Shown in pieces: positions 2,055-17,582 of a DNA stretch of 64,000 bases. The notes under the pieces are model-generated. The model was given only the letters and a program-made list of their open reading frames with translations. It did no database searches and had not been told where the DNA came from. Numbering within the stretch: position 1 is the first letter of the stretch; every line of letters begins with the position of its first letter. The position numbers were made by a program, and so were the translations under genes. This DNA is from a virus: positions 634 to 64,633 of IMG/VR virus record IMGVR_UViG_3300021431_000015. The stretch is one strand, 5' to 3'.

Positions 2055-2062
2055 GAGGCACG

Positions 2063-2502: not shown

Positions 2503-2839
2503 GGAATGGGCGAAGCCGTTCTACAAGTCGGCGGCATGGGAGAAGGTCAGGGACGCTGCGCTGTGGAGGTCTCACTCGCTGTGCGTGCGCTGCAAGGAGC
2601 GCGGCAAGCTGACGCCAGCCAGGGTCGTGCATCACATGGTTCCGCTGACGCCGGAGAACATCGACGACCCGGCAATCTCGCTGAACCTGGACTTGCTGAT
2701 GCCGCTGTGCCACGAGTGCCACGGCATCGTCCATGACGAGCTGGGCGTGGGAGCGCCGTTCGTGCGAAGCAAGGCCGACCGCGAGCTGGACGAGCCGAGG
2801 GTCGGGTTCGATGCGATGGGCAACGTCGTGAAGCTGTAG
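2495..2839 (+). CDS. HNH endonuclease
   Basis: CVRCKERGK..VVHHMVPL..N...LMPLCHECHGIVH: canonical HNH C..C/HH/N/H..H motifs; position next to terminase. Confidence 0.85.
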   Translation: MAKEWAKPFYKSAAWEKVRDAALWRSHSLCVRCKERGKLTPARVVHHMVPLTPENIDDPAISLNLDLLMPLCHECHGIVHDELGVGAPFVRSKADRELDEPRVGFDAMGNVVKL

Positions 2840-2919
2840 CTGTACCGTTTATCGGACATGTGGTATGATGCGGCCTGCTCGCGGATGCGAATCTACCTCC
2901 CTTCTCCGTGAGTATCGAG

Positions 2920-2955
2920 CCTGGGACGCTGCAACGTCCTGGGCTTTCTTTTTGG
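2920..2955 (+). terminator. putative rho-independent terminator after terL-HNH
   Basis: imperfect hairpin cctgggacg..cgtcctggg followed by ctttctttttgg. Confidence 0.4.
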
Positions 2956-3388
2956 CTGCATACAGGGTGGCGTGCGGGGAGTTTTCGGGGTATCTGAATC
3001 CTGGGCCGACGCTTTCGGATGGCTGCGGCGGGCTTAGCGCGAAAACCGGCAGGCGAAGGGCTGGATGTTTTGTCGCCTGAGCTGGGCTTCGCGTGCGATA
3101 TTTTGCGCATGCGATATGTATGTATGTGCACGTAATTAAGCGTGCGGATTAAGCGCAGGCATGTATATATTTCGGCAGAGTTGGAAAAATTCCGCGCTCC
3201 TATTGCCGTCTCCCGCGCCGGACCCCTCGCCTGACCTGGTTTTTTATATAATATGGGGGATATGTCTAAATTGTGGTCGATAGCGTCGCCAGTCGGCCGC
3301 TATCGGCGCGTTTGCGCAGGTCAATCGCTGTTTTTCCATCCCATACCCATACTATATCTATACATATAATCATTATTGTATGGTTGTT

Positions 3389-3423
3389 GTCTCCGTCTCC
3401 GCTGTGTCTCCGTCTCCGCTGTG
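3389..3423. repeat. tandem direct repeat (gtctccgtctccgctgtg x2)
   Basis: seen directly in sequence in low-GC intergenic island. Confidence 0.5.
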
Positions 3424-3443
3424 GCTTAAACACTATGCAAAAA

Positions 3444-3494
3444 CGCATACCGCATAGGCTATTTCCCCTATTCAAATAGCCTATTCGGTATGCG
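3444..3494. promoter_or_regulatory. 21-bp imperfect inverted repeat (cgcataccgcataggctattt / aaatagcctattcggtatgcg), possible operator or structured site
   Basis: one mismatch between arms, 9-bp spacer; AT-rich surroundings. Confidence 0.35.
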
Positions 3495-3627
3495 CTTCAA
3501 CATATTCATATATGTAATGGGTCAATCCTTGCGCGTAAACGCACTGCCAAACGGTATCTAATACCAAAAATCCAGCGGCATAGTTAGGCATACCTAACTT
3601 TCGTGTTCGCCTGGTAAACGCTTGTGC

Positions 3628-3864
3628 CTATTCCCCTGCGTCAATCTGTATCGCGGTATCCGGCAACGTCTCGTTGTCCGGTATGGCGTACAAGCCATAA
3701 CCGCAAACCCCTAGCATCCTTGCAGTTGTATCCGTTTTGGGCGTGCTGCCGCGCGTCAATATCTTGTTTACGTAGTTGTCCGCATTGCCCATAGCGCGGC
3801 CTATGTGCGTTAACGGTGTACCGCTTGCGTATGCCGCTTGTTTAACCGCACTCATTGTGTCCAT
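3628..3864 (-). CDS. small HTH-like DNA-binding protein (78 aa)
   Basis: GTPLTHIGRAMGNADNYVNKIL resembles XRE-type helix-turn-helix; lies in lower-GC island. Confidence 0.45.
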   Translation of the reverse strand: MDTMSAVKQAAYASGTPLTHIGRAMGNADNYVNKILTRGSTPKTDTTARMLGVCGYGLYAIPDNETLPDTAIQIDAGE

Positions 3865-4105
3865 TATTCCCCCATTTATCAGGCGCTTTATTGTTTTTTG
3901 TCCATCAATCTTAACTCATTATTCCCCAGATGCCTATTACCCAGTTGTGTAGGGTTTATGTAGAACAACATTACCCACTTGCGTATGCATACCCAGTTGG
4001 GTATGTTTAATGCGCACCTTGAAAACGATAAACGCCTTACCCGCTAGGGTTTGGCGCTTGTCGCGTCAAGCGTGCAGCACCTTGAAAATCGAATATCGCT
4101 AAAGC

Positions 4106-4629
4106 GTTCCTTATGTTGGGTACCCGTTTACAACGGTTACATATCAACATGGAAGGAAACAGATTATGGCTACTATCACTTTCAAGAATGGCGCAACTGC
4201 AACTATCAATATGGACGAACTTAAGACCCTGTTGGGGCTTGAGGGTATCGCCACCGAGAACGTATTCGATACTATCGTTATTAGTAAGCCGCTCGATACG
4301 CGCAAGGTTGACAAGGTTGCAAGCGGCGAAAACCGCGAACCTGTCCCCTACGCTAAGTTTGGCAAGCGTGCCAAGGGTATCGCCGACAATGCACGCAAGC
4401 ACGCCCCTAGCGCGGCGTGTGTCATCCAGTACCCCGCCAAGGGCGACAAGGGCAATGGCTGGATTTGGCTGGACAATAACGGTCAATTTGTTGAGGGCTT
4501 GTCCCCCAACTGGAAGTGGTCTAAGCGTCGCAAGATGCACTATTACGACCTTAACCCCAAACCCGCTAAGAAAAGCGGAAACAAGTAGGTATCATCGGGT
4601 ACCCAACACGGGTACCCAACATAAGGAAC
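4106..4629. repeat. single-gene cassette bounded by perfect 20-bp inverted repeats (gttccttatgttgggtaccc ... gggtacccaacataaggaac)
   Basis: IR arms at 4106-4125 and 4610-4629; 12-bp tandem duplication gggtacccaaca next to right arm; direct repeats caccttgaaaa(c/t)cga at about 4019 and 4081. Confidence 0.6.
4166..4588 (+). CDS. hypothetical protein (140 aa) carried inside IR-flanked cassette
   Basis: GGAAGG RBS 9 nt upstream; lower GC than surrounding phage genes. Confidence 0.6.
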   Translation: MATITFKNGATATINMDELKTLLGLEGIATENVFDTIVISKPLDTRKVDKVASGENREPVPYAKFGKRAKGIADNARKHAPSAACVIQYPAKGDKGNGWIWLDNNGQFVEGLSPNWKWSKRRKMHYYDLNPKPAKKSGNK

Positions 4630-4639
4630 ACTCACAAGC

Positions 4640-5395
4640 GATATTCGAACCCGGCGCGTGTTTCAGGTTGCTAGTACTCAATAGAACAACTTCAAGCGCC
4701 TACACGCCACGTCGCATAGCGGGGATAAGTACCCGTGTAGGGACGTGGTAGCCGGGATGCCTACGGTACCCGTTTGGGCGTGGCGTGGCTTGCTTGTCCA
4801 TCGCCACGCCCTAGGGATAGGGATATTTACCCGTAATCACTGCAAAACATAGGGTAACTGGGTCTGCACCGAAGGGCGGGCGATTCGTCGCCTGAATCCG
4901 GCGCAAGGGATTCATGCCAGATGCAGGTCTGGACCCGGCAACACGCTGTCGATCCAAGGGAGAGGTATATAGCCATGCCCCTCCGGCGGTAGGCGTGACT
5001 CCGAACCGCGCTGCGGCGCGGCTAGGGAACGTGTGCCGTAACCGATGCGTAGCGGTGAAACCGTAGGAATACAAATCCGGGAACCATGCATCCAAGGCGG
5101 AGCCATGCCCACAGCCCGATACCTCCGGAGACGGAGCGGGGAGTAATCCCGCTGGTTATAGGCGGAGCTGTGCACGGCGGATAAGAACCCTGCGATACGT
5201 AGCAGGCCGACGGTGCATGAAACCGGTACGTCCGAGGTGTCAAGGACGTCAACCAGAGCCCCCGCTCAGGGCTCGACTCCGGGGCACAGCCATGCCCCGG
5301 CTATCAGCTGAGCTGATACGGGCGGAGCACTCCGAGGTGAGAAGCGGAGTGCCGAGCCACGTGGCAGCTCGCCACGCAGAGAAACCCTCCCCTGA
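4640..5395. ncRNA. candidate large structured non-coding RNA (GC-rich, ORF-poor, hairpin-dense)
   Basis: about 750 bp of high-GC sequence with no ORF >95 aa in any frame; several perfect local hairpins (ccgggg..ccccgg, gcactccg..cggagtgc, tatcagc..gctgata, agcggg..cccgct); strand undetermined. Confidence 0.3.
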
Positions 5396-5406
5396 AAGGA
5401 GCAACC

Positions 5407-5652
5407 ATGCTGCACGACCACGATTTCACCCCTGAGCAGTTCGAGTCCTTCGAGGAACTCGCGGCCTACGACGGCTGGGACATCCCCGAGCGTCCCCTCG
5501 TCGATGAAATCGACGAGCTCGCCGAGTTCGCCGCCCTCGCCGAGGACGAGTACCGCACGGCCCTCTGGGCCGAGTCCCTGCCCTACGTGGAGCACGTCGA
5601 GCTGGTCGACCGAGACGAGCAGCTCCGAGTCCACGACGGCATCTTCTCGTAA
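5407..5652 (+). CDS. very acidic small protein (81 aa), DNA-mimic-like
   Basis: GAAAGGAG RBS; D/E-rich composition. Confidence 0.6.
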   Translation: MLHDHDFTPEQFESFEELAAYDGWDIPERPLVDEIDELAEFAALAEDEYRTALWAESLPYVEHVELVDRDEQLRVHDGIFS

Positions 5653-5691
5653 GAGCCGAGCCGAGCAACCCCATCCGAGAAAGGAGCCACC

Positions 5692-5889
5692 ATGAAGGCC
5701 ATCAAAATCATGAAGTCCCGTTCCATCGTATCCATCGACGAGTCCCTCGCCGAGCTTATCCGCCTCTCCGAGACGAGCGAGGTCGCAGCCGTCGTCTGCC
5801 TCACGGAGACGACGAGCCGAGGCTACCACACCGCCTTCAGGGATGGCCGAGCCGCCCAGTACTCCCCCGCCGAGGGACGCTTCATCTAG
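5692..5889 (+). CDS. hypothetical acidic protein (65 aa)
   Basis: GAAAGGAG RBS. Confidence 0.55.
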   Translation: MKAIKIMKSRSIVSIDESLAELIRLSETSEVAAVVCLTETTSRGYHTAFRDGRAAQYSPAEGRFI

Positions 5890-5931
5890 GACAACGAGCC
5901 GTGGCCGAGCCACGGAGAAAGGAGCCGAGCA

Positions 5932-6117
5932 ATGCCGAACGCCGTATGGACGAGCCATGACCTCGATGGCATCGCCGAGATGACACTCCGGGAGGTCTAC
6001 GAGTTCTACGAGTCCGAGGTCAACCACGCCGAGTATCCGAGCTTCGCGGGCTGGCTGTGGGACATGGAGAGGTCGGCGGTTCTGTACCGCCACAAGACGA
6101 GCGTCAACGGACGCTAG
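5932..6117 (+). CDS. hypothetical protein (61 aa)
   Basis: GAAAGGAG RBS. Confidence 0.55.
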   Translation: MPNAVWTSHDLDGIAEMTLREVYEFYESEVNHAEYPSFAGWLWDMERSAVLYRHKTSVNGR

Positions 6118-6130
6118 AGAGAGGAGCCGA

Positions 6131-6506
6131 GATGGGCAAGCACTACAAGCAGACGAGCATGGTCGAGGAGCTGCTGCTCGACCCGAAGATGCGCTGCTAC
6201 TGCGGCTACAAGGCCGAGACGATGGCTTTCACGAAGGCCAAGTATCGCCGCCGCGAGAGGGCTGCGCTCAAGCGCAACCTCGCCGCCGAGGTCGAGGTCG
6301 AGTTGGTCGAGATGGCCGAAGCCGAGGCCGAAGCTGCCAAGAAGGCCGCCTACGAAGCCTACAAGACCGAGAGCATCTCGTACTGGCTGGACGAGAGCAT
6401 CGACGCGATGACGGACATCGAGTGCCTCAAGCACGAGCTGGAGAAAGCCGAGGAGCGGCTCTACGAAGCCGAGTTGATGCTGAGCTACTTGGAAGAGGAG
6501 GAGTAA
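6131..6506 (+). CDS. hypothetical coiled-coil/acidic protein (125 aa)
   Basis: GAGAGGAG RBS; C-terminal EAEAEA..LEEEE. Confidence 0.6.
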
Positions 6507-6508
6507 CC

Positions 6509-6865
6509 ATGATTAAAGCCAACCGAGTATCCAACCTAATCGCCCTCGTCCTGAGCGCGAGCCTGCTGTTCCCTACGAGCGCCCTGGCCGTGTCACTCCC
6601 CTACGTCGATGACGTGAACGAGTGGGGCAACGGCAAGAGCATCCTGACGCTCTACGCCTGCGGCAAGGAGAAGACGAAGCAGTTCCGAGTCACCGACACC
6701 AAGAGCCATAAGAGCGTGAAGGTCAAGAACCTGCACCGCTGGGAGAAGACGGGATACGTCGGAACGGTCGTGGTCAAGAACGGCCACGAGTACAAGATAA
6801 GCGTCCGAGCCAAGTCCCGCGGCAAGTGGGGCAAGTGGAAGAGCATCGGATACCGGGTCTACTGA
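6509..6865 (+). CDS. secreted Lys-rich protein with signal peptide (118 aa)
   Basis: N-terminal hydrophobic signal ..LLFPTSALA; RBS GGAGGAG. Confidence 0.65.
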   Translation: MIKANRVSNLIALVLSASLLFPTSALAVSLPYVDDVNEWGNGKSILTLYACGKEKTKQFRVTDTKSHKSVKVKNLHRWEKTGYVGTVVVKNGHEYKISVRAKSRGKWGKWKSIGYRVY

Positions 6866-6876
6866 GAGGAGGAGCC

Positions 6877-6981
6877 ATGTACGACCTGTACACCGAGTTC
6901 GGGCTGTTCTGGGGAACTGTCCGAGGGCTTGAGGAAGCCCTGAAGGCGTGCCGAGCCTATGGATTGAGTATCAAATGGTGA
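6877..6981 (+). CDS. mini-ORF (34 aa)
   Basis: GAGGAGG RBS 5 nt upstream; stop overlaps next start (ATGGTGA). Confidence 0.35.
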   Translation: MYDLYTEFGLFWGTVRGLEEALKACRAYGLSIKW

Positions 6982-7175
6982 CGAAGTTCGTTAAGCGTGG
7001 CGCCATCGCCACCATCGAGGAGCTTCCGGACGGTTGGTTTCTGGTGAGAGTCACGTGGAGCCCACGGCCACGGACTCGCTATGTGTGCAGCACAGCCGCG
7101 AAAACCAAACGGGAAGCGTTTGAGCGTCTCCCTGAAAACGGCTACGGCTGGAAACGAGTATCGAGAAAGGGGTGA
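6975..7175 (+). CDS. hypothetical basic protein (66 aa)
   Basis: ATG overlapping upstream stop. Confidence 0.45.
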   Translation: MVTKFVKRGAIATIEELPDGWFLVRVTWSPRPRTRYVCSTAAKTKREAFERLPENGYGWKRVSRKG

Positions 7176-7249
7176 TGCGAGTGGAGAAGCTGTTCTCCCT
7201 GCTCCTGGCAGCGAGCGTGCTGCTGGGATACATCGGAATGTTGAGCTAA
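7175..7249 (+). CDS. possible 24-aa hydrophobic peptide
   Basis: ATG in TGATG overlap; single TM-like segment. Confidence 0.25.
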   Translation: MRVEKLFSLLLAASVLLGYIGMLS

Positions 7250-7263
7250 CGAGAGGAGCAAGC

Positions 7264-7500
7264 ATGGTAGGCGAGCTGACAATCGAAAACATCACCCTGG
7301 AGGTCTACTGCTTCAGTACCGACGAGACGCTGTACTGCGGGCCTATTCCGTCCGAGCCGTTCGACACGCCCTGGGCGGAATGGATGACCGAACCCGCCGA
7401 CGACCCCTACATCGGCGAGGACGGACGCCTGTACTACGAAGGCGACGGACGATGGACGCTCCGCGTCTACGTCACGAAACCCTACAAACACGAGGAGTAA
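7264..7500 (+). CDS. hypothetical protein (78 aa)
   Basis: GAGAGGAG RBS. Confidence 0.55.
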   Translation: MVGELTIENITLEVYCFSTDETLYCGPIPSEPFDTPWAEWMTEPADDPYIGEDGRLYYEGDGRWTLRVYVTKPYKHEE

Positions 7501-7592
7501 ACGACCCGGTTCTTACGAGCCGGGTCACCTGTAAACCGGGCGGTTCTGAGCCTAGGAAACCTGAGCCGCCCACGAAACGAGAGGAGCGTACC

Positions 7593-9182
7593 ATGAGTAA
7601 CGCCCAACTGCAAGCTGTCCATGCCAACTACGCCCACGGCCTCATCGCCACCTTCGAGTGGCAGCGCCTCGTGGCGGAACTGACCTCCACCGCCGAGGAA
7701 ACCTCCACCGAGCCCGTCTGGCGCTGCGCCATCTGCGAGGAACCGGGCGAATGGCCGGACGGATGCATCGAGGATTCCAAGATCGAGATTGACGGCAAGC
7801 TCTACTGCTCCGAGGACTGCGCCGAGGAAGCTGGGTACCGCCTCTGCGCCTCATGCGATGAATGGCATGACGAACATTACGGGGTCGAGGCCGGTGACGA
7901 GTGGTTCTGCTGCTCTGACTGCGCCATGTTCGCAGGATACCACTGCTGCGAGCGTTGCGGAGATTGGCACGGCGACGAGGACGCGGTCGAGGCCGGCGGC
8001 TATTGGTACTGCTCGACCGATTGCGCCCATGAGGACGGCTTGGAGTGCTGCGCGTATTGCGGCGAGTGGCACTGCGAGGACGATTCAATCGTCGCGGATA
8101 ACGATTCCTGCGGGTGCTACTGCTCCGAGGAGTGCGCCCGGAACGACGGGCTGTTCTACTGCGACCACTGCAACGAGTGGTACAGGGAGACTAGGCAGGT
8201 CGGACAATACGAGGTTCGCCACTATGGCGAGTTTGAAACCTGGTGCGAGTATTGCCACAGAAACGATTCATTCTATTGCGAGGGCTGTGACGAAACCGTA
8301 AGCGCAGCAGATTACGGCCACGACGGGCGCTGCGAGGATTGCTGCGAGGACGACGCCCTCCACGAGTACGGCTGGACTCCGGTCTTGTGCTTCTACGGCG
8401 GCGATTCGTACCAGAGGGACACGCCCTTCCTGGGAATCGAGCTCGAGACGGACTCCGGCTCCGACCGCAGAGGCTACGTCGAAGAGCTTGCCGAGCTCCC
8501 GAATTTCACCCAGCACTTCTGGATGACTAAGGATTCGAGCCTCGACAACGGGGTCGAGATTACCGGCCATCCGACGACGCTCGCCTATCACGAGCGAATC
8601 ATGAAGGTGTACGAGGGAATCAGGGACACGGCGATACGGTTCGGATACGTGAGCCACAACAGCGGCAACTGCGGCCTGCACATCCACGTGAACAGGAACT
8701 TCTTCGGGAGGAACAAGTTCATGCAGGATGCGTGCGGATACAAGATGATGCGGGCTTTGCAGAGGTTCGAGCACCAGTTCACGGTTTTCTCGAGGCGCAC
8801 GGACGGCAACTACTGGTGCCACTACAACTACTGCGGAGATTACTCCATGCCGAAGAAAAACGGCAAGGTTCAATACTCCATGCGCGAGTTCCGCAACAAG
8901 GTATCGGACGCGAACTGCGACCGCAACCACACCCAAGCGCTGAACTTCCAGCACTACGGCACCTTCGAGTTCCGCATCTTCCGAGGGACGCTCAAGCTCG
9001 AGACGCTGTTCGCGAGCATGGGGTTGGTCAACGGCCTATGCCACCTCGCCAAGAAGCGCGGCTCGATGTTCTTCGAGACGTGCGACTGGTACACGCTCAT
9101 CCAGCAGATTGTCGAGAACGTGGACACCGAGTACGCCAAGCAATGCCTGGTCGCCTACCTGGAAGAGCGCGGGCTCAACTAA
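7593..9182 (+). CDS. Amidoligase_2 (GCS2/glutamine-synthetase-like) enzyme with N-terminal array of about 4 C4 zinc-ribbon repeats
   Basis: C-terminal half has FLGIELE..GVEITGHP..CGLHIHVN..FEFRIFRGT motifs typical of Pfam Amidoligase_2; N-terminal 230 aa is C..C(D/G)EWH..VEAG..W(Y/F)C..DCA repeats; RBS GAGAGGAG. Confidence 0.85.
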   Translation: MSNAQLQAVHANYAHGLIATFEWQRLVAELTSTAEETSTEPVWRCAICEEPGEWPDGCIEDSKIEIDGKLYCSEDCAEEAGYRLCASCDEWHDEHYGVEAGDEWFCCSDCAMFAGYHCCERCGDWHGDEDAVEAGGYWYCSTDCAHEDGLECCAYCGEWHCEDDSIVADNDSCGCYCSEECARNDGLFYCDHCNEWYRETRQVGQYEVRHYGEFETWCEYCHRNDSFYCEGCDETVSAADYGHDGRCEDCCEDDALHEYGWTPVLCFYGGDSYQRDTPFLGIELETDSGSDRRGYVEELAELPNFTQHFWMTKDSSLDNGVEITGHPTTLAYHERIMKVYEGIRDTAIRFGYVSHNSGNCGLHIHVNRNFFGRNKFMQDACGYKMMRALQRFEHQFTVFSRRTDGNYWCHYNYCGDYSMPKKNGKVQYSMREFRNKVSDANCDRNHTQALNFQHYGTFEFRIFRGTLKLETLFASMGLVNGLCHLAKKRGSMFFETCDWYTLIQQIVENVDTEYAKQCLVAYLEERGLN

Positions 9183-9246
9183 CCCAACCACAACCGAATG
9201 CAAAACGAGGGCGCTGCGGCGCCTTCATGATTGAAAGGAGATGCCT

Positions 9247-10086
9247 ATGTGCATCATCGTAGCCAAGCCCATGGACGTGGAAATGCCCGACACCGACACC
9301 CTGTTCAGCTGCTTCGAGTCCAACCCGGACGGAGCCGGGTTCATGTGGGCGGACGGCAAGAGCGTCCACATCCGCAAGGGATTCATGACCTGGGAGAATT
9401 TCGAGGAGGCGCTCGATGCCGAGATTCCCGAGCAGAAGCGCAAGGAACTGGCAATCGTCATGCACTTCCGAATCGCGACCCACGGCAAGGTGCAGCCGAT
9501 GTGCTGCCACCCCTTCCCCATCAGCTCGAGCCTCGAGGATTTGCAGAGGACGCGCTGCGAGTCGAGGTTCGGCATCGCCCATAACGGAGTCATCCAGGGG
9601 CGGACGACGAACGACAAGCGGAGCGACACGATGGACTTCGTGATGAAGGTCGTGGCCCCGCTTGCGAAGATGAACGCCAACTTCATGAGGAACTCGCACG
9701 CCCTTGACCTGCTGGAAGGAGCTTGCGGCTCCAAGCTGGCAATCCTGGAGAACTCCGGCGAGCTGGTAACCGTGGGCGACTTCGTGGAGGACGAGGGAAT
9801 CCTCTACTCCAACACGAGCTACCTCACGTGGAGCAAGCGCTATTCGAGCTACGGGAGCCTGTTCTCCGGGACTGGATACACGGAGGCCTACGGCGAGTAC
9901 CTGGACGACTTCATCGACATGCTGCCCTGGATGGCGTGCAAGGACTGTGCGAACGCCGAGTTCTGCGCCATGGATTACCCGGAGTGCGAGAGCGAGAACA
10001 TCGCTCACAAGATGAGCGCCTACATGAACGGCTGGGATGACGAGTGGATTGTCGAGGACGAGGAAACGGCGGTGTTGGTCGGCTAA
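9247..10086 (+). CDS. class-II (Ntn) glutamine amidotransferase-like protein
   Basis: starts MCIIVAKP (Cys2 nucleophile after Met removal), HFRIATHGK and GIAHNGVIQG motifs; RBS AAAGGAG positioned for the second ATG. Confidence 0.85.
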   Translation: MCIIVAKPMDVEMPDTDTLFSCFESNPDGAGFMWADGKSVHIRKGFMTWENFEEALDAEIPEQKRKELAIVMHFRIATHGKVQPMCCHPFPISSSLEDLQRTRCESRFGIAHNGVIQGRTTNDKRSDTMDFVMKVVAPLAKMNANFMRNSHALDLLEGACGSKLAILENSGELVTVGDFVEDEGILYSNTSYLTWSKRYSSYGSLFSGTGYTEAYGEYLDDFIDMLPWMACKDCANAEFCAMDYPECESENIAHKMSAYMNGWDDEWIVEDEETAVLVG

Positions 10087-10397
10087 TGGGCAAGGTCAGG
10101 TACAACCAGGCAGGCTATGTCGGCTGCTCCATGTCGGAGCGAGCCGTCATGGCCTACGAATCGGGCGAGATGCCCAAGTCGAAGTGGACGAAACGAGCCA
10201 TGCTCACGGCAATCGAGGACTACTGCGACGAGTTTTCCATCCCCTACGACGGGCGGCTGTCGTCGCTCAAGAAGGCGGAGATATTCGAGCGGTTCTTCGA
10301 GTGGAAATCATGGCACCACACCGGGAAGTACGCCAACGTGACGGACTTCTACGGGTTGGACGAGGAAGCGGTTTGCGAGTTGGGAGGAATGGAATGA
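10086..10397 (+). CDS. hypothetical protein (103 aa)
   Basis: TAATG overlap with upstream gene. Confidence 0.55.
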   Translation: MGKVRYNQAGYVGCSMSERAVMAYESGEMPKSKWTKRAMLTAIEDYCDEFSIPYDGRLSSLKKAEIFERFFEWKSWHHTGKYANVTDFYGLDEEAVCELGGME

Positions 10398-10624
10398 GCA
10401 AGTTCAACATCGGGCAAGAGCCGACCGACGAGGAATGGAGCGTGTACTTCAAGTGCAGGAACTACCTGAAGCGCGAAACGGTCGCCGGGTACCTCGAATG
10501 CAGAGGGCTTGACGCCACACAGGAGCAGTTCGACGGCATGTATGCCGCTTACGAGAAGTTCATGTCTTACGACGACGGAGACGAGGAGACGATGCTCCGT
10601 CTGGCATGGGAAGAAGTTCGATAG
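10394..10624 (+). CDS. hypothetical protein (76 aa)
   Basis: ATGA overlap. Confidence 0.55.
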   Translation: MSKFNIGQEPTDEEWSVYFKCRNYLKRETVAGYLECRGLDATQEQFDGMYAAYEKFMSYDDGDEETMLRLAWEEVR

Positions 10625-10632
10625 GAGGAAAC

Positions 10633-11733
10633 ATGAAGTACATGGGTTTCGAGGTTCTGCAAGCACTCAAGACGAAGAACGCAATCAAGCGGGCCAACCC
10701 GAACAGGTTGCTCGAGTTCCACTTGAGGAACATCAACGTCAACGGGCAGAAGCGGGGATGCTCCGGGCACATCCTGGACATTGACACCGGAGTCTGCGTG
10801 TACATCAACACCGAGCGGTCGGTGCAGGTGCCGCACGACATGCTGTACCGGGAAGCCAAGGGCGTGGGCGACTTCAGCAGCCTGGGCATCCTGAACAACT
10901 TTGCGAGCACGTTGGAGGAGCTTGTCGAGGGAGTATCCCGGCTGCTCGACGTGCCGGTGAGGAAGAAGGCGGAGAAGGAGGAAGCCGTGGCAAAGAAGCA
11001 GACGAAGAAGGCAGAGGTCAAGGAGGAAAGCATGGCTAAGAACACGGTCAAGTTCGAGAAGGCGAAGGTCTGGGTCGCCCCCACCAAGGACACCGTCGAG
11101 GAGCGCGACGGCTACAGGTTCGCCGACAAGATCGGCGAGGTCGAGCTGTACGTGGGGCTCGTGAAGGAGAACGGCGGCTGGGTGATGGTCGACACCTACA
11201 CCGGGACGAGCCTGGGCGGCCTCACCTACTCGACGAGGGACAAGGCGGCGAGACACTACTTCGACACGGTGAAGGCCGCATACGAGAAGGTGTTCATGAC
11301 GGAGATGCACGAAGCGAAGGCGTCGGACTTCTCCAAGAAGTGCCTGCACGCCAAGGGAGTCGAGACGAAGGGAGAGCAGATGAAGAGACAAGAGAAGGAG
11401 CTGGCGAAGAAGGCCGAAGCTGCCGCCAAGGCCAAGCCGAAGCGCAAGCGCACCGTCAAGAAGCAGGAGCCGGTGCCGGTGCCTGAGACGGTCGAAACCA
11501 CGGCGGTCGAGACGCTGAGCTTCATCGACGGCGACGCCGAGAGCGCGGAGAAGGTCATCGAAGCGCTCCGGGAGCTGATGAAGGACGGCAACGTGGTCGT
11601 CCGCTGGAAGGGCAAGCCGATGGCCCCCATCCGGGTCGAGGGCGACACCAAGCCCTACCAGGAAGCGCTGAAGGAGCGCGGACTTCGCTGGGCACGCAAG
11701 GGCTTCTGGTACTTGAAGCCGACGATGGCCTAG
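10633..11733 (+). CDS. hypothetical protein (366 aa) with Lys-rich central linker
   Basis: ATAGGAGGAA RBS; long ORF, phage codon usage. Confidence 0.7.
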   Translation: MKYMGFEVLQALKTKNAIKRANPNRLLEFHLRNINVNGQKRGCSGHILDIDTGVCVYINTERSVQVPHDMLYREAKGVGDFSSLGILNNFASTLEELVEGVSRLLDVPVRKKAEKEEAVAKKQTKKAEVKEESMAKNTVKFEKAKVWVAPTKDTVEERDGYRFADKIGEVELYVGLVKENGGWVMVDTYTGTSLGGLTYSTRDKAARHYFDTVKAAYEKVFMTEMHEAKASDFSKKCLHAKGVETKGEQMKRQEKELAKKAEAAAKAKPKRKRTVKKQEPVPVPETVETTAVETLSFIDGDAESAEKVIEALRELMKDGNVVVRWKGKPMAPIRVEGDTKPYQEALKERGLRWARKGFWYLKPTMA

Positions 11734-11803
11734 CCGCTGGCGACAACTGAATATTCCGAGGATGGAGGGCGCGACGGGCGCCCTCCCGGTTTAAGGAGGA
11801 CTT

Positions 11804-12013
11804 ATGCGCGAGGTTGTCATTTTAAGCGTGAGCGAGGACGACATCGTTGAACTCTTCGGCGACGAGGTGCGCGAAGAGCTGGAAGCAAAGGGCTTGATTC
11901 AAGACGTCCTTGAAGAAGCGGCGGTGTCCATCGGCACCTACATCGACGAGGGCGAGAGCTTCACCGAGTTCCTCGGTTATGCGATTGACGAAGCCCTTGG
12001 TCACGAGGAATAG
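11804..12013 (+). CDS. acidic hypothetical protein (69 aa)
   Basis: AAGGAGGA RBS; preceded by GC hairpin. Confidence 0.6.
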   Translation: MREVVILSVSEDDIVELFGDEVREELEAKGLIQDVLEEAAVSIGTYIDEGESFTEFLGYAIDEALGHEE

Positions 12014-12022
12014 GAGGAAAGC

Positions 12023-12490
12023 ATGGGTCTGGATATGTATCTCTACACCAACAGCAAGAAGGTCTGCAAGGCCGCGAACGAGGCAACCGATGCCGAGCCT
12101 TGGCATTACCAGTACGGCACGGCCATCTACTGGCGGAAGGCGAACGCAATCCACCAGTGGTTCGTCGAGAACGTGCAATACGGCGAGGATGATTGCAGCC
12201 TCTATGTAGTCGAGGTCGAGCAGCTCCAAAAGCTGCTGGAAGTGTGCGAGGAGGTCCTGGCCGACCACTCCAAGGCGGAGGAACTCTTGCCAACGCAGGC
12301 CGGGTTCTTCTTCGGGAGCCTCGAATACGACGAGTGGTACTGGGGTGACGTGGAGTGCACCGCCGCCGGATTGATGGCAATCCTCGACAACGTGGAGCCG
12401 TTCGAAACCGGGCGTCCCTGGACGTCCTGGCGGGAGAAGGGCGACCCCGATGAATGGGAGGTGAGGTTCTACTACCGCTCTAGCTGGTAA
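12023..12490 (+). CDS. hypothetical protein (155 aa, MGLDMYLY..)
   Basis: GGAGGAAAG RBS. Confidence 0.7.
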   Translation: MGLDMYLYTNSKKVCKAANEATDAEPWHYQYGTAIYWRKANAIHQWFVENVQYGEDDCSLYVVEVEQLQKLLEVCEEVLADHSKAEELLPTQAGFFFGSLEYDEWYWGDVECTAAGLMAILDNVEPFETGRPWTSWREKGDPDEWEVRFYYRSSW

Positions 12491-12568
12491 CCGCAAGCAT
12501 CCATTAGGAAGCAAGGGAGGGTGCGCTGGTAACGAAGCCCTCCCCCACCAACGAGGAAAGGATAGCAC

Positions 12569-13186
12569 ATGGGAAACAGAGCTGTCATCACTGACAAGGA
12601 CAAGCAAATCGGTATCTACCTGCATTGGAACGGTGGCCGAGACTCCGTCGAGGGTTTCCTGACGTACTGCAAGCTGAGGGGGTTCCGTTTTGACAGCTAC
12701 GGCAGGGCGCGTTTCTGCCAGGTTGTCGGCAACTTCTTCGGAGGGGGCTTGAGCCTGGGAATCGACCTCTACGAACGATGCGACACCGACAACTGGGACA
12801 ACGGCGTATACGTCGTAGACAACTGGGAGATTGTCGAGCGCCTCTACTCGCACGGAGAGCAGATGGAATACCCACTCGACGAGATGCTCAGGGCTATCGA
12901 CGATGCTCAACCAGAAAGCGAACGGCTGGGAGAATATCTCGACTCTATCGAAATCCCTACTTCCGAGCTGAGAATCGGAGACAAGGTATGGTTCCCCGGC
13001 ATTCGCGAGGGCGGCACTTACGAGCTGCATGAGATTGTTGGATTCGGGACGCAGGACGCCGTCAACGGTCGTGGGTATCTCGGACGCCCATATGCTGCGA
13101 TATACGGCGACAAAAAGCGCGGATACGAGTGGAACTGCAACAACTACGTCAGAACCGAGACTTGCAGGATTGAACCACGGCAATAA
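12569..13186 (+). CDS. hypothetical protein (205 aa)
   Basis: RBS AGGAAAGG; followed by hairpin gggagggcttcggccctccc. Confidence 0.7.
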   Translation: MGNRAVITDKDKQIGIYLHWNGGRDSVEGFLTYCKLRGFRFDSYGRARFCQVVGNFFGGGLSLGIDLYERCDTDNWDNGVYVVDNWEIVERLYSHGEQMEYPLDEMLRAIDDAQPESERLGEYLDSIEIPTSELRIGDKVWFPGIREGGTYELHEIVGFGTQDAVNGRGYLGRPYAAIYGDKKRGYEWNCNNYVRTETCRIEPRQ

Positions 13187-13233
13187 CCGGAAACTGGGAG
13201 GGCTTCGGCCCTCCCCCACGTTAGGAGGAAAGC

Positions 13234-13389
13234 ATGAAGACACTGATAATCGACGAAGGTCGCAAGTTAACCCACGAGGAATGCGTTGCGATAGCCAAGG
13301 AGCACGGCATTACGGTCGTGCTTATGGTTGAGAGCACGGATGCGCTTGTTGGCGAAACCTGCACAGAATACAAGGTCACGGGCTGGTAA
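13234..13389 (+). CDS. mini-protein (51 aa)
   Basis: GGAGGAAAGC-ATG. Confidence 0.4.
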   Translation: MKTLIIDEGRKLTHEECVAIAKEHGITVVLMVESTDALVGETCTEYKVTGW

Positions 13390-13399
13390 GGAGGAAAGC

Positions 13400-13576
13400 A
13401 TGAAATACAGCAAGCAAGAATGCCCGAAATGCGGCGAATACAACAACGTGGAGGCCGGTCATGTCCAGGCAGACGGCGATACGGCGTGGCACACGACCAC
13501 ATGCCTTGAATGCGGCTGCGAATACGTCGAGGTTTACCGCTTCGATTGCGTGGAGTTTGATGGTGAGGAGGACTAA
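13400..13576 (+). CDS. zinc-ribbon protein (58 aa)
   Basis: CPKCG..C.ECGC; GGAGGAAAGC-ATG. Confidence 0.6.
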   Translation: MKYSKQECPKCGEYNNVEAGHVQADGDTAWHTTTCLECGCEYVEVYRFDCVEFDGEED

Positions 13577-13792
13577 ATGAGCACGAGATTCAGATGCCCG
13601 AAGTGCGGAAACGACGAGACATTTTACGCAAACTGCTACGTCGAGCACCACGAAGCAATCATCGACAACACGGGAATGTGGATTGGCGACAGCGAATGCT
13701 ACGACAGCGGTTTCGAGGATGGCCGACTCATCACGTGCCCAAAATGCTACTTCCAAGGCGATGACGAAGCGTTTGAGATTGAGGAGGACTAA
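13577..13792 (+). CDS. zinc-ribbon protein (71 aa)
   Basis: CPKCG...CPKC; TAAATG junction. Confidence 0.6.
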   Translation: MSTRFRCPKCGNDETFYANCYVEHHEAIIDNTGMWIGDSECYDSGFEDGRLITCPKCYFQGDDEAFEIEED

Positions 13793-13990
13793 ATGAGCAG
13801 ATTCGCATTCATCTTCGACGATGACGAACAGGTCGGGGACGTCACGTTCTTCGACGACGGCAGGGCCACGGTGATGAACCTGTGGTCCGGCATACAGCAA
13901 TGGTTCGATAACCAGGAGACGGGGCATGCGGACGCAATCCGCTACATCAGGACGCGCATGGCGCCTGATTTCAAGCTGGTCGAGGTTTAA
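13793..13990 (+). CDS. hypothetical protein (65 aa)
   Basis: TAAATG junction identical to previous gene pair. Confidence 0.55.
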   Translation: MSRFAFIFDDDEQVGDVTFFDDGRATVMNLWSGIQQWFDNQETGHADAIRYIRTRMAPDFKLVEV

Positions 13991-14001
13991 GGAGGAACGA
14001 C

Positions 14002-14331
14002 ATGTTCAACAAGGAAATGACAGAGAGCATCATCGAGGATTGCCTGCTCCGCATGAGCCTGTTCAACGACAGCCACAACGGCAGAGCCAGGAACATGCTG
14101 GTGAGGATATGCGTCGCCGGTGTCGACGGCGGCGGCCTGAGCACCTACGGGAAGTCGGCGGTCATCGGCCCTGACGACCATTACGAGTGCCATAGGGGTT
14201 ATCTCTACGTCTACCGAAAGCGCACCGAGCAGGAATCCCGCCACGACCACAAAAAGGAGGTCGAGAGCGTGGCTTTCATCCCCTACGAGAGCATCATTGC
14301 CATCGAATGCGCACCGTGCGCTTACGTTTAA
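14002..14331 (+). CDS. hypothetical protein (109 aa)
   Basis: AAGGAGGAA RBS. Confidence 0.6.
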   Translation: MFNKEMTESIIEDCLLRMSLFNDSHNGRARNMLVRICVAGVDGGGLSTYGKSAVIGPDDHYECHRGYLYVYRKRTEQESRHDHKKEVESVAFIPYESIIAIECAPCAYV

Positions 14332-14341
14332 GGAGGAACCC

Positions 14342-14581
14342 ATGAGCGAGAAACGCCTTATCGAGCAGGTCAACGCAGCCGAAAGTGTGGTCGACGCCAA
14401 GCTCGACTGCCCGGAGTGCGGCAAGCGGCTCGTATGGGATGGAGCTTGCCCTGACGAGGAATACCGTGACGGCGAGTTCTGGTCGATTGAAACATACGAG
14501 TGCGAGGATTGCCGACTGTATGTCAATGTGACGCAGGTTTACCGGGCCGCTGAACGCAGGGTGTCAGTCGAAGAACTATAA
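14342..14581 (+). CDS. zinc-ribbon protein (79 aa)
   Basis: CPECG..C.DC; AAGGAGGAA RBS. Confidence 0.6.
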   Translation: MSEKRLIEQVNAAESVVDAKLDCPECGKRLVWDGACPDEEYRDGEFWSIETYECEDCRLYVNVTQVYRAAERRVSVEEL

Positions 14582-14591
14582 GGAGGAACAC

Positions 14592-14789
14592 ATGAGCGAA
14601 ATCATGGACAAGCTGAACATGGAACCCGGCCGCTGCGCATGGTGCGGCAGCCCCGCCACGAAGCTGGTGCGGATGGAGCGCGACGTGAACGTCCTGCTCT
14701 GGTTCGAGTGCTTCGATTGCGGCGGCGAGCACATCGAGTGCTACAGCATGGACTCGAAGGGCATCCTGCCGAGCAAGGAGGAAGAATGA
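14592..14789 (+). CDS. zinc-finger protein (65 aa)
   Basis: CAWCG..CFDCG; AAGGAGGAA RBS. Confidence 0.55.
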   Translation: MSEIMDKLNMEPGRCAWCGSPATKLVRMERDVNVLLWFECFDCGGEHIECYSMDSKGILPSKEEE

Positions 14790-15010
14790 GATACCAAGAA
14801 CCCCTGCATGACAAGAGGACGCTCGAGCTTCTATGGGAAGCCTTCGGCGACTGCTGCTGCGACGACATGGGAATCATGGACAGCCCGTTCTGCGGATGGC
14901 CCGCAGGAACCGACCGCGAGGAGGTCTGGCATTGGTTCGACGGGCAGTATGCGAGATGGGGCGGCGTGCATGCGCTGATGTTCCCGGACGAGCATCCCGA
15001 ATGCCGCTGA
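14786..15010 (+). CDS. Cys-rich hypothetical protein (74 aa)
   Basis: ATGA overlap. Confidence 0.55.
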   Translation: MRYQEPLHDKRTLELLWEAFGDCCCDDMGIMDSPFCGWPAGTDREEVWHWFDGQYARWGGVHALMFPDEHPECR

Positions 15011-15074
15011 TCCGCACCACATATTACCGTACATGGAGGACCTTCGGGTCCTCCGCCATTTTAAGGAGGAAAAC

Positions 15075-15383: not shown

Positions 15384-15392
15384 GAGAAAAAC

Positions 15393-16516: not shown

Positions 16517-16517
16517 A

Positions 16518-16769: not shown

Positions 16770-16779
16770 GAGGAAACAT

Positions 16780-17040: not shown

Positions 17041-17100
17041 ACGCAGGAACATACAGGTTGTTAGAGGGCGCTGCGGCGCCCTTCTTGTTAGGAGGGGCTC

Positions 17101-17289: not shown

Positions 17290-17297
17290 GAGGGCGG

Positions 17298-17573: not shown

Positions 17574-17582
17574 GGAGGGGAA

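Follow-up and report, generated by a model that had tools for sequence, protein, structure and literature searches.

A predicted phage amidoligase fused to an acidic array of FCS/TRASH-type Cys4 fingers and paired with a divergent class-II glutamine amidotransferase-type protein

In this work, we describe two neighbouring genes of a temperate siphovirus-like phage that encode a predicted ATP-dependent amide-bond-forming ligase of the Amidoligase_2 type, carrying an N-terminal array of very acidic Cys4 fingers (protein A), and a stand-alone, Ntn class-II glutamine amidotransferase (GAT)-type protein (protein B). Sequence comparisons indicate that the two form a conserved gene unit and that the fusion of fingers and ligase is the norm across a large family; we tentatively propose that they act together as a γ-glutamyl-type ligase and an amidohydrolase on a basic macromolecule. 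Coordinates refer to the window, that is, the whole 64,000-nucleotide stretch of viral DNA that was analysed, and the features of the locus are as follows.

7580–7586, + strand: Shine–Dalgarno-like AGAGGAG, 6 nt before the gene A ATG at 7593 (read from the sequence)
7593–9182, + strand: gene A, finger-array/Amidoligase_2 fusion, 529 aa (single uninterrupted ORF)
7593–7718, + strand: A residues 1–42, two short N-terminal helices, H3–14 and H20–37 (AF2 secondary structure)
7719–8153, + strand: A residues 43–187, four predicted tandem FCS/TRASH-type Cys4 fingers, u1–u4 (shuffles, HMM, PDB and Pfam profiles, model)
8154–8366, + strand: A residues 188–258, two divergent predicted Cys4 fingers, u5 and u6 (conserved Cys)
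8367–9179, + strand: A residues 259–529, GS-fold carboxylate–amine ligase domain, Amidoligase_2 (Pfam, PHROG, Foldseek, invariant residues)
9235–9240, + strand: Shine–Dalgarno-like AAGGAG, 6 nt before the ATG at 9247 (read from the sequence)
9247–10086, + strand: gene B, stand-alone class-II (Ntn, Cys1) GAT-type protein, 279 aa (MCIIV start)
9832–10083, + strand: B residues 196–279, acidic helical tail with an invariant Cys4 motif (invariant columns)

The frame around gene A is open without interruption from 7380 to 9182 (+ strand), the closest homologue of A is a 530-aa protein (86% identity, 100% coverage), and the contig that encodes this homologue is syntenic with the window. Thus, the Cys repeats and the catalytic half belong to one ORF, and the prospect that the repeats might lie in a separate upstream ORF is ruled out. 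The start of gene B is most likely ATG 9247 rather than 9241, which would place a Cys immediately after the initiator Met. Terminator-like and promoter-like sites were looked for on the + strand between A and B and none was found, and the two neighbouring genes are apparently co-transcribed. Elsewhere in the window the phage encodes an integrase (40475–41593) and an ordinary C5 methyltransferase with a BglII-like nuclease.

The ligase domain and its amidotransferase-type partner

Both window proteins score under the Pfam gathering cut-offs, A with 17.5 bits against PF12224 (Amidoligase_2; E 0.0039, residues 319–468, cut-off 22) and B with 14.6 bits against GATase_4 (cut-off 23), so their family assignments rest on homologue matches, conserved residues and predicted folds. 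The HMM search that the preliminary description had proposed as a check therefore falls short for the window proteins themselves and succeeds for their homologues.

For A, 70 of the 78 aligned homologues match PF12224 (E ≤ 0.01, best 6.8e-11), many of the matches to A carry it as a precomputed domain, and PHROG 7469 (‘amidoligase enzyme’) matches A at E 1.8e-5. The motifs from which an Amidoligase_2-type ligase had originally been proposed (FLGIELE, GVEITGHP, CGLHIHVN and FEFRIFRGT) are all present in the 529-aa protein and fall on invariant columns of the 78-sequence alignment. Invariant residues there include G281, E283, E285, G320, E322, C360, G361, H363, R401, R402, E459 and R461, with H365 at least 90% conserved. 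This set (ExE, E, HxH, R and ExR) presumably corresponds to the metal- and ATP-binding residues on the barrel strands of glutamine synthetase (GS), and by alignment none of the conserved active-site residues (acidic, His and Arg) is missing from A. The AF2 model of A (pLDDT 88.7) matches GmaS (9qur), YbdK (1r8g and 1tt4), several GS and, ranked below GmaS and YbdK, PafA/Dop (4bjr and 4b0r), with probability 1.0 and E down to 2e-5, together with many viral ‘Amidoligase enzyme’ models. Family-level matches, conserved residues and AlphaFold/Foldseek comparisons establish a glutamine-synthetase/YbdK fold for the catalytic half and support its predicted activity as an ATP-dependent ligase. Residues 1–42 have no match in a Pfam scan, and neither the A nor the B model has a visible signal peptide or membrane segment.

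B has 1117 homologues, and none of the 120 listed carries a precomputed Pfam domain. Among 70 family members, 50 match GATase_4 and 10 match GATase_6 (E ≤ 0.1), which places B in what appears from sequence to be a divergent class-II GAT subfamily outside Pfam model membership. M1 and C2 are at least 90% conserved in the 70 sequences, N26, G29 and G31 are conserved or invariant, and H73, F74, R75, I76, T78, G80, H112, N113, G114, S126 and D127 are invariant; the H-x-R-x-A-T-x-G and hNG motifs of the preliminary description are found as HFRIATHG and AHNG, and neither varies. We assign roles to these residues by assumed analogy with GlmS R73, N98-G99 and D123, whereby B would retain the Cys1 nucleophile, an oxyanion hole formed by Asn-Gly, and the Arg and Asp with which GlmS and PurF hold the α-carboxylate and α-amino group of a γ-glutamyl moiety. 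The AF2 model of B (pLDDT 88.4) matches the glutaminase domains of GFAT (6svq), GlmS (3ooj and 1xff) and PurF (1ao0 and 1ecb) with probability 1.0, and its TM score against GlmS (3ooj/1xff) is 0.50–0.52 on the isolated domain. Family-level matches, conserved residues and AlphaFold/Foldseek comparisons establish a GlmS/PurF-type Ntn glutaminase fold, and the identification of the next gene as a class-II GAT stands. The acidic tail (residues 196–279) has no match in a Pfam scan; its motif, C231-x2-C234-x5-C240-x6-C247 (nt 9937–9987), lies in a segment modelled at a pLDDT of about 90 (residues 220–260) and is a probable metal site.

An acidic array of treble-clef-like fingers

The N-terminal repeats had been described as about four zinc ribbons of roughly 30 residues and left without a family assignment. 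Four clear copies of about 34 residues are indeed present (u1–u4, residues 43–82, 83–116, 117–150 and 151–187), and they are followed by two divergent C4 units that the earlier count did not include (u5 and u6, residues 188–226 and 227–258). Pairwise alignments of the clear copies reach z = 4.6–9.8 over composition-preserving shuffles, that of u5 with u6 reaches z = 4.7, and an HMM of the unit (family consensus xxCxxCGEWxxxDDxxxxxxxxFCSxxCAxxxGY) finds four copies in the window, all in this array. The 216 residues of the array include 32 Cys, compared to 9 in the other 313 residues of A. In the 78-sequence alignment C190, C193, C247 and C250 are invariant and C153, C156, C177, C181, C218, C221, C229 and C232 are at least 90% conserved; the Cys of u4–u6, nearest the catalytic domain, are kept family-wide, including in relatives of about 365 aa.

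An alignment of 35 units has C3, C6, C24, C28, A29 and G33 invariant, and u1–u4 follow the ligand pattern C-x2-C, 17–21 residues, (F/Y)C(S/C)-x2-C-A. The best solved match to the unit profile, over the full unit, is the FCS finger of PHC1 (2l8e, E 7.7e-4). In Pfam, the 35 units match zf-FCS (6), zf-FLZ (5), Arc_trans_TRASH (5), zf-FCS_1 (4) and the DUF2116 treble clef (3), with single units also matching TRASH_HVO_1752_C; these matches are marginal one by one and consistent taken together, and a Pfam scan of the window A itself gave no significant finger match. As read from AF2 secondary structure assignments rather than coordinates, the fourth Cys of each unit sits in a short helix (residues 74–79, 108–113, 142–147 and 179–184) that comes after hairpin strands. 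The pLDDT of the array ranges from 58 to 95 and is mostly about 90, with an average of about 60 for residues 91–130, a stretch that spans the larger part of u2 and the beginning of u3. Profiles and model together thus assign u1–u4 to the FCS/TRASH-type treble-clef fingers, so that the repeats can be assigned after all, and A carries six predicted zinc sites.

Two other finger types were considered and rejected. Zinc ribbons hold both ligand pairs on β-hairpin knuckles of a three-stranded sheet without a helix, and the modelled helix with the fourth Cys rules out this earlier label; zinc-ribbon Pfam families match only 1–2 homologues or units. A LIM domain does not fit either, as the array has no PF00412 match at E ≤ 10 and its fingers are Cys-only and about 8 residues apart, rather than C2HC plus C4 with a two-residue linker; 6 of the 78 homologues match LIM, and the family profile reaches LIM domains of the PDB at only E 0.004.

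Whereas PHC1 (2l8e), plant FLZ and archaeal TRASH proteins share the ligand pattern of u1–u4 with other fingers of the FCS/MYM/TRASH group, the A family carries its units in tandem (2 to 8 among relatives), in phage proteins, with a charge of about −7 each, and keeps GEW after the first knuckle and a terminal G(Y/W/F/L). The array has a net charge of −47 over its 216 residues, and the mean for 72 units from 56 proteins is −6.9 each. This acidity argues against DNA binding, an option raised in the preliminary description that is thus unlikely, and for a basic partner, although it names no protein target, as polyamines and metal ions are basic ligands too. The array is under purifying selection (dN/dS 0.31), and identity to the closest relative is 78% in the Cys-rich half against 94% in the catalytic half. 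An unrelated family of phage proteins, with an SCMSG...RHFIRIY domain, carries this repeat too, and the repeat is also found alone, which suggests that the array is a portable binding module.

Gene pairing and comparable systems

The A family comprises 478 protein matches, many of 450–550 aa and with 75–100% coverage. Among bacterial species representatives it occupies at least 497 loci, mostly in Oscillospiraceae of the gut and rumen, whose genomes often hold several; it extends to cluster-S mycobacteriophages. The fusion is real, as was claimed, but it is a standard family architecture and not a peculiarity of this phage. A GAT-II gene directly follows the ligase gene in L001, L003, L009, L086 and Mycobacterium phage Marvin, and in 63 loci in all, including 61 of 80 bacterial-genome loci, nearly all of which have a different GAT-II subfamily that starts with MC(A/S/C)(L/I)FG. 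Around A, related phages have only B and one secreted protein in common, and no A–B fusion was found among 200 family members. By this conservation of gene order we regard A and B as a two-gene unit.

Phage pairs of Amidoligase_2 and class-II GAT go back to a computational prediction by Iyer et al. 2009, and the literature searched reports neither a substrate for them, as the preliminary description had it, nor a phenotype. The same adjacency is found in the early or accessory region of LUZ24-like Pseudomonas phages, phiEco32, OM43 phages and Marvin, in which gp105 has N-terminal CxxC pairs as in A and gp106, a detectable B homologue (29% identity), has a C-terminal Cys cluster placed as in B. 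LUZ24-type clusters add a COOH-NH2 ligase, an ATP-grasp enzyme and a γ-glutamyl cyclotransferase (PMC3890496), none of which was found by Pfam and PHROGs in the ten proteins neighbouring A and B (6132–20642). Their GAT has 486 aa and matches GATase_6, whereas B has 279 aa and belongs to a subfamily without a precomputed Pfam domain, and what sets the present ligase apart from LUZ24/phiEco32-type clusters is its six fingers.

Three kinds of characterised pairs invite comparison. EgtA/EgtC of ergothioneine synthesis and PuuA/PuuD each combine a GS/GCS2-fold γ-glutamyl ligase with a GAT-type de-glutamylating hydrolase. YbdK/GCS2 is among the best fold matches of A, and GATase_4, to which EgtC presumably belongs, is the best Pfam family of B. 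The similarity is at the level of the fold only; HMMER searches against solved structures gave no match, and both systems are small-molecule pathways with intervening enzymes and without zinc-finger arrays. PafA and Dop, also encoded together, make and break the isopeptide between a Glu γ-carboxylate and a protein Lys; both are GS-fold enzymes, whereas the hydrolase of the present pair would be an Ntn class-II GAT, and no Pup-like tag gene was recognised near A and B. MurT/GatD is a two-gene ligase and glutaminase that amidates a glutamate carboxylate, and MurT carries a Cys4 zinc site; MurT has the fold of the Mur ligases and GatD belongs to the class-I (triad) GATs, and neither fold matches A or B.

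Possible roles of the pair

The reading that we favour, with a probability of roughly 0.38, goes beyond the domain assignments and is modelled on the logic of EgtA/EgtC, PuuA/PuuD and PafA/Dop. A would activate a glutamate-type carboxylate with ATP as an acyl phosphate and join it to an amine; the γ-glutamyl-type amide would form on a basic macromolecule recruited by the acidic fingers, in all likelihood a protein of the host or of the phage. B would be the cognate γ-glutamyl-amide hydrolase (or deamidase) and would prepare, trim or remove the adduct, and the module would work in the cytoplasm, during infection or lysogeny, in host takeover or counter-defence.

GS-like γ-glutamylating enzymes are typically encoded beside GAT-like γ-glutamyl hydrolases, and all characterised GS-fold ligases known to us activate the glutamate γ-carboxylate. 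We take GATase_4 to be a stand-alone family of the YafJ/EgtC type, and a hydrolase is favoured over an ammonia donor because matches to it are commoner in the B family than matches to GATase_6; moreover, every ammonia-donating class-II GAT known to us is fused to its synthase. The macromolecular, basic nature of the target is suggested by the charge of the array, its dN/dS and the portability of the repeat, and the γ-glutamyl cyclotransferase added in related phage and prophage clusters (PMC3890496; PMC11318856) points to γ-glutamyl adducts. Solved EgtC structures are absent from the top 50 Foldseek matches of B, where the true amidotransferases GlmS and PurF are present, and the γ-glutamyl-binding residues of B would bind free glutamine equally well. 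A two-gene write-and-erase pair also seems futile unless a host enzyme intervenes or the two steps occur at different times, in different places or on different targets.

The main rival to this γ-glutamyl ligase/hydrolase reading is glutamine-dependent amidation, which we consider possible, if doubtful: B would hydrolyse glutamine and deliver the ammonia to A, and A would activate a target carboxylate (for example that of a Glu side chain, of a protein C-terminus or of a precursor of the cell wall) with ATP and turn it into a carboxamide, as in the amidation of peptidoglycan iso-glutamate by MurT/GatD. Such chemistry requires two activities, in keeping with two genes conserved together; B has the full GlmS/PurF set for glutamine binding and catalysis and its best fold matches are amidotransferase domains, and the use of two GAT-II subfamilies as partners of the ligase fits a generic ammonia supply. 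Nevertheless, we know of no GS-fold ligase that draws ammonia from a GAT partner, the fusion usual for class-II donors is not seen among the 200 family members, and amidation leaves the cyclotransferases of related clusters unexplained.

The pair is unlikely to make or modify a small molecule or cell-envelope precursor (a peptide-like metabolite, for instance, or a building block of peptidoglycan or teichoic acid) so as to change the surface and exclude superinfecting phages. Such a role is what has been predicted for phage amidoligase/GAT genes, as PMC10580990 and PMC11318856 summarise, and the hypothesis for phiEco32-type clusters is attributed to Iyer et al. 2009. The integrase of this temperate phage makes lysogenic conversion plausible, and relatives are present in many Oscillospiraceae genomes, often several in each. 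Against this stand the COOH-NH2 ligase, ATP-grasp enzyme and cyclotransferase missing near A and B, a portable acidic six-finger array more typical of macromolecular recognition, and models of both proteins without a signal peptide or membrane segment.

A long shot is that the array serves phages as a portable targeting module, possibly by mimicking nucleic acid, and docks different enzymes (the amidoligase A and the unrelated family with the SCMSG...RHFIRIY domain) onto basic proteins of the host that bind nucleic acids, for instance nucleoid proteins or defence nucleases; A would γ-glutamylate or amidate the bound protein to neutralise it, and B would control or reverse the mark.

It is improbable that the pair attaches an amide-linked group to a modified base, with the fingers anchoring the enzyme to DNA. 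FCS fingers of Polycomb-group proteins do bind nucleic acids. In some viral contigs (PMC8989533), amidoligase/amidotransferase genes are also found together with genes for thymidine hypermodification, but no hypermodification family (5-hmdU kinase, aGPT-pyrophosphorylase, dUMP hydroxymethylase or TET/JBP) was matched in about 30 scanned window proteins, which include the small ORFs only in part, a charge of −47 is unsuited to DNA, and the methyltransferase of this phage is an ordinary C5 enzyme with a BglII-like nuclease. Finally, that the Cys-rich half is a chance, composition-biased or decaying region without a function of its own, as its faster evolution and variable repeat number might suggest, is already contradicted by its twelve invariant or at least 90% conserved Cys columns, its dN/dS, repeats that are significant against shuffles, a model that is mostly confident outside residues 91–130, and the recurrence of the repeat in other protein families.

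Amidoligase/GAT-II pairs have been predicted since 2009 and have become a routine annotation of phage and prophage genomes; to this known enzyme pair, the newly described addition is the zinc-finger array. Discrete, conserved and very acidic, it should bind a target and could be used as bait, and its repeat on an unrelated phage family suggests a common recognition device. If the array does dock enzymes onto basic host proteins, the module would represent a new enzymatic class of phage host takeover or counter-defence through isopeptide modification; more generally, should a host protein prove to be the target, the known phage modifications of host proteins would gain an ATP-driven chemistry of isopeptide formation or amidation.

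Gene structure and the two predicted enzymes

Genes A and B adjoin each other on the forward strand, with a small gene upstream:

6506-6865, +, small protein with a signal-peptide-like N-terminus
7503-7526, 7-bp GC-rich hairpin (GACCCGG...CCGGGTC, 10-nt loop) without a T-run
7593-9182, +, gene A, 529 aa: Cys4 finger array (residues 43-258) and Amidoligase_2 domain (259-529)
9247-10086, +, gene B, 279 aa: protein of the class-II glutamine amidotransferase (GAT) type

Gene A occupies one uninterrupted ORF in the six-frame list (7380-9182, +), and its start at ATG 7593, 6 nt 3' of an AGAGGAG, gives a 529-aa product. The cysteine repeats and the catalytic half thus belong to a single protein, which refutes the possibility, left open in the preliminary description, that the repeats come from a separate upstream ORF. 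The closest database relative has 530 aa (86% identity, 100% coverage of A), and its contig shares with the window a run of genes for 530, 279, 104, 72, 369, 156 and 205 aa. The second forward-strand ORF spans 9241-10086, and because the AAGGAG at 9235-9240 is spaced to suit ATG 9247 and not ATG 9241, we take B to be the 279-aa protein starting MCIIVAKP, with the N-terminal cysteine proposed for it earlier; its relatives are of the same length, 279 aa, and at least 90% of the family alignment keeps M1-C2. A GC3 of roughly 0.8-0.9 in both frames marks them as real coding frames. We found no terminator-like or promoter-like site between A and B on the forward strand, no promoter or terminator signal above chance in 5000-12000, and, in an Rfam scan, no RNA family other than two tRNAs. 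The hairpin at 7503-7526, between the small upstream gene and gene A, may be an RNA structure.

Protein A itself stays below the Pfam cut-off for Amidoligase_2 (17.5 bits, E 0.0039, against 22 bits). Despite this, we assign it to the ligases because it matches PHROG 16683 (6.6e-43) and a PHROG annotated 'amidoligase enzyme' (1.8e-5), PF12224 is found in 70 of 78 aligned homologues (best 6.8e-11), and the structural model and its fold matches agree. The AlphaFold2 model, built on the 78-homologue alignment, has a pLDDT of 88.7, and its best solved-structure matches in a fold search, all at probability 1.0, are gamma-glutamyl-methylamide synthetase, YbdK/GCS2, glutamine synthetases (GS), 1-naphthylamine GS, PafA and Dop, with TM-scores that are low (0.3-0.4) because the query also includes the finger array. 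The fold search was needed since PDB sequences, searched with profiles of A and B, yielded no enzyme, just weak LIM/PHD matches on the Cys region. Residues E283, E285, E322, H363, R401, R402, E459 and R461 are invariant in the family and H365 is at least 90% conserved, a set that, compared by residue pattern and not by superposition, would reproduce the ExE / E / HxH / R / ExR of the GS active site. A is thus predicted, from alignment and model, to be a catalytically intact GS-fold carboxylate-amine ligase. The window region 7000-11000 has no DNA similarity to isolated phages, and tblastn matches of A to phages are confined to the catalytic half.

Searches detect 1117 homologues of protein B, and the 120 listed all lack a precomputed Pfam domain. 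B scores 14.6 bits against GATase_4 (cut-off 23), a profile matched by 50 of 70 family members, with GATase_6 matched by 10 of 70. Both predicted Pfam assignments, Amidoligase_2 and GATase, therefore rest on matches of family members, the two window proteins themselves falling below the cut-offs. Conserved or invariant columns comprise C2 (at least 90%), N26, G29, G31, H73, F74, R75, I76, T78, G80, H112, N113, G114, S126 and D127, presumably equivalent to the GlmS/PurF nucleophile, HxRxATxG arginine, Asn-Gly oxyanion hole and aspartate. Fold search with the model of B (pLDDT 88.4) pairs it at probability 1.0 with the GFAT, GlmS and PurF glutaminase domains; TM to the isolated GlmS domain is 0.50-0.52. 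These data support the class-II motifs first read from the sequence; every motif quoted then, for A and B alike, is present and lies on invariant alignment columns. B is accordingly predicted to be a divergent yet complete class-II Ntn glutaminase-type enzyme. It also has an acidic, helical C-terminal tail that the preliminary description did not mention (residues 196-279; window 9832-10083), with four invariant cysteines in the motif C231-x2-C234-x5-C240-x6-C247 (window 9937-9987). Gp106 of Mycobacterium phage Marvin has a Cys cluster at the same place.

An acidic and portable array of predicted treble-clef fingers

Residues 43-258 of A contain 32 cysteines among 216 residues. The "about 4 copies" counted earlier correspond to true repeats, units u1-u4 (residues 43-82, 83-116, 117-150 and 151-187; pairwise z = 4.6-9.8 over composition-preserving shuffles), and the count omitted two divergent C4 units that follow, u5 (188-226) and u6 (227-258), which are related to each other (z = 4.7). 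Searched with a unit HMM (72 units, 56 proteins), the window yields four copies, all in A. Relatives of A have 2 to 8 units; because u4, u5 and u6 keep their cysteines in at least 90% of the A-family alignment or throughout it, and relatives of ~365 aa retain about three units, the family core is three fingers adjoining the catalytic domain, with u1-u3 an expansion.

The unit was formerly called a zinc ribbon assignable to no known family, and neither description survives. Although the window array alone has no significant match to Pfam finger families, a 35-unit profile (family consensus xxCxxCGEWxxxDDxxxxxxxxFCSxxCAxxxGY) aligns end to end with the PHC1 FCS zinc finger (2l8e; E 7.7e-4), and single units match zf-FCS, zf-FLZ, zf-FCS_1, Arc_trans_TRASH, TRASH_HVO_1752_C and the 'probable treble clef' DUF2116. 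The model of A places each unit's fourth Cys in a short helix following a hairpin, which argues for a treble clef and not a zinc ribbon. We thus assign the fingers, by profile and model, to a predicted FCS/TRASH treble-clef class, distinct from LIM domains proper, the label that some relatives of A have in databases.

The array has a net charge of -47 (D+E 27%, K+R 5%) and the mean unit charge across the 56 proteins is -6.9; the catalytic domain is neutral. So acidic an array is unlikely to bind DNA or RNA electrostatically; a partner of basic character is the more plausible one. Identity to the closest relative is 78% in the array (dN/dS 0.31) and 94% in the catalytic domain (dN/dS 0.28), and between the window and the relative's locus (L086) dS differs three-fold, 0.41 in the array (7719-8366) against 0.13 in the catalytic domain. 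The array is thus constrained, yet evolves or recombines faster than the catalytic domain; the dS difference suggests that it was swapped by recombination or has a different history.

A first homologue search with the array alone found no match, although one database protein (P0001) is 78% identical to it in this part. Exhaustive phmmer with the same query retrieved 88 proteins, and 48 of 80 new array proteins lack an amidoligase domain. Many, including P0243, P0245, P0249 and P0251, combine an unrelated ~300-aa N-domain (SCMSGxG...GEQVGRCIMYEYNGxRHFIRIY) with 2-6 fingers of the type repeated in A, and others consist of a free-standing array alone (72-270 aa). The N-domain has no match in Pfam, PHROG or PDB, and we rejected it as a hidden amidoligase or GAT (hhalign probability <1% against A's catalytic domain and B). 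One such array gene belongs to the early region of a phage contig of 52 kb (L087 6001-8297), and the gene after it encodes an M20/M28/M42-like peptidase with a single FCS finger at its end; this adds one further 'enzyme plus array, then hydrolase plus finger' arrangement and is suggestive only. A recognition module that delivers different enzymes to a common kind of partner would be expected to be distributed in this way. Of the "targeting or DNA/protein-binding module" originally proposed, the targeting part agrees with the portability of the repeat, and the DNA part is opposed by its charge.

Distribution, pairing and genomic setting

A has 478 matches in the protein collection. Among genomes scanned at one per species there are at least 497 relatives, of which the top 80 are almost all from Oscillospiraceae/Ruminococcus, often several per genome. 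Many matches of A and of B lie on contigs of equal length, and adjacency of the two genes was confirmed in three compared loci (L001, L003 and L086). A class-II GAT N-terminus begins the next gene at 63 loci in all, including 61 of the 80 best genome loci, where nearly all partners are proteins of ~320 aa starting MC(A/S/C)(L/I)FG, too divergent for tblastn with B to detect. The order of ligase then class-II GAT is thus kept while the GAT subfamily changes. In the MCALFG-type partners of Oscillospiraceae, a YGxDxEDVELLLxYGY motif takes the place of B's Cys tail motif. B-type partners occur in the window's own clade, at one Christensenellaceae locus and in phage Marvin (gp105/gp106), whose ligase, gp105, has N-terminal CxxC pairs. 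Some Ruminococcus/Oscillospiraceae loci (L045, L053, L083) have two finger-amidoligase genes in tandem, and R. flavefaciens genomes hold several separate copies.

Among predicted viral structures, those closest to A bear the annotation 'Amidoligase enzyme' or 'LIM domain containing protein'. Since the top matches align over 390-470 columns, fingers included, the architecture is already present in public databases; we found no paper describing it in the literature searched.

Near A, related phages share just B and the small secreted protein at 6506-6865, which is kept near the amidoligase in L001 and L003 (37-38% identity). The ten proteins neighbouring A gave no match to COOH-NH2 ligase, ATP-grasp or GGCT, and a weak match of the 6132-6506 product to Ribonuc_red_sm was rejected as below the cut-off. 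The window is a temperate siphovirus-like genome with genes for a large terminase, tape measure, tail proteins, integrase, SSB, single-strand annealing protein, replication initiator and endolysin-like protein, and two tRNAs. Its other features include:

18664-19293, +, BglII-like restriction endonuclease (Pfam E 5e-8)
19350-20642, +, C5 cytosine DNA methyltransferase (E 2.5e-57)
20897-21793, -, PAPS-reductase-domain protein, early region (Pfam E 3.6e-16; PHROG 424)
24588-27140, -, 850-aa protein, recognisable only in a Lar restriction-alleviation domain (residues 138-187)
39163-39317, -, adjacent tRNA-Arg(CCT) and tRNA-Ile(TAT)

As the BglII-like gene, also found downstream in L001, adjoins the methyltransferase, the phage has its own restriction-modification pair. 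Phage PAPS-reductase-domain proteins are commonly annotated as auxiliary metabolic genes, and tRNA-Ile(TAT) reads AUA directly, without lysidine modification. In the region 2840-5400, ORFs with the high GC3 typical of real genes are few and GC is lower (0.54 in 2001-4000); it contains an inverted repeat of 25 nt (4103-4127/4608-4632, 96% complementary) whose arms enclose 480 nt, and 17 nt are perfectly duplicated in tandem at 3388-3421.

Candidate activities of the pair

Phage Amidoligase_2/GAT-II systems were reportedly first predicted by Iyer et al. in 2009, and the A/B module belongs with these and works like them. It is not of the larger LUZ24/phiEco32 type, because the additional enzymes of those clusters are absent around A.

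Conservation and modelling show a pair of intact predicted enzymes, a ligase and a glutamine or gamma-glutamyl amidohydrolase, kept together. To our knowledge, the characterised GS-fold ligases activate a glutamate gamma-carboxylate, free or at the Pup C-terminus, and couple it to ammonia or an amine. In several cases (EgtA/EgtC, PuuA/PuuD and similar pairs) a neighbouring gene codes for a GAT-type hydrolase, which takes the glutamyl group off again at a later step, and PafA/Dop is the protein-modifying counterpart of this logic. Related phage and prophage clusters also carry a gamma-glutamyl cyclotransferase (PMC3890496, PMC11318856), which points to gamma-glutamyl adducts. By analogy with these precedents, the array would hold a basic macromolecule, A would join a glutamyl-type group to an amine on it, and B would prepare, trim or remove that group. 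We tentatively favour this sequence, at less than even odds, for the ligase/hydrolase precedents, the cyclotransferase in related clusters and the fusion habit of the GATs that bears on its main rival.

In that rival reading the pair would be a two-subunit enzyme, comparable to MurT/GatD, that amidates a carboxylate in a glutamine-dependent reaction; the reading requires exactly the two activities conserved here and fits the GlmS/PurF-like structure of B. We consider it rather doubtful, as no GS-fold ligase is known to us to take its ammonia from a GAT, the ammonia-delivering class-II GATs known to us are all fused to their synthase, and A-B fusions, sought as a sign of a complex, were not found among 200 family members. 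A role in the cell envelope or in superinfection exclusion, an idea already published, seems improbable to us. DNA hypermodification we reject as very improbable, since no pathway genes were found among the scanned window proteins and the strongly acidic array is unsuited to it.

Compared with the literature searched, the new elements are the finger-array architecture of a large amidoligase branch, the extreme acidity and portability of the array, the Cys4 tail of B and the swap of GAT-II subfamily beside the ligase. The finger-array amidoligase module is unsurprising in kind, yet it provides a tangible way into a problem of long standing.
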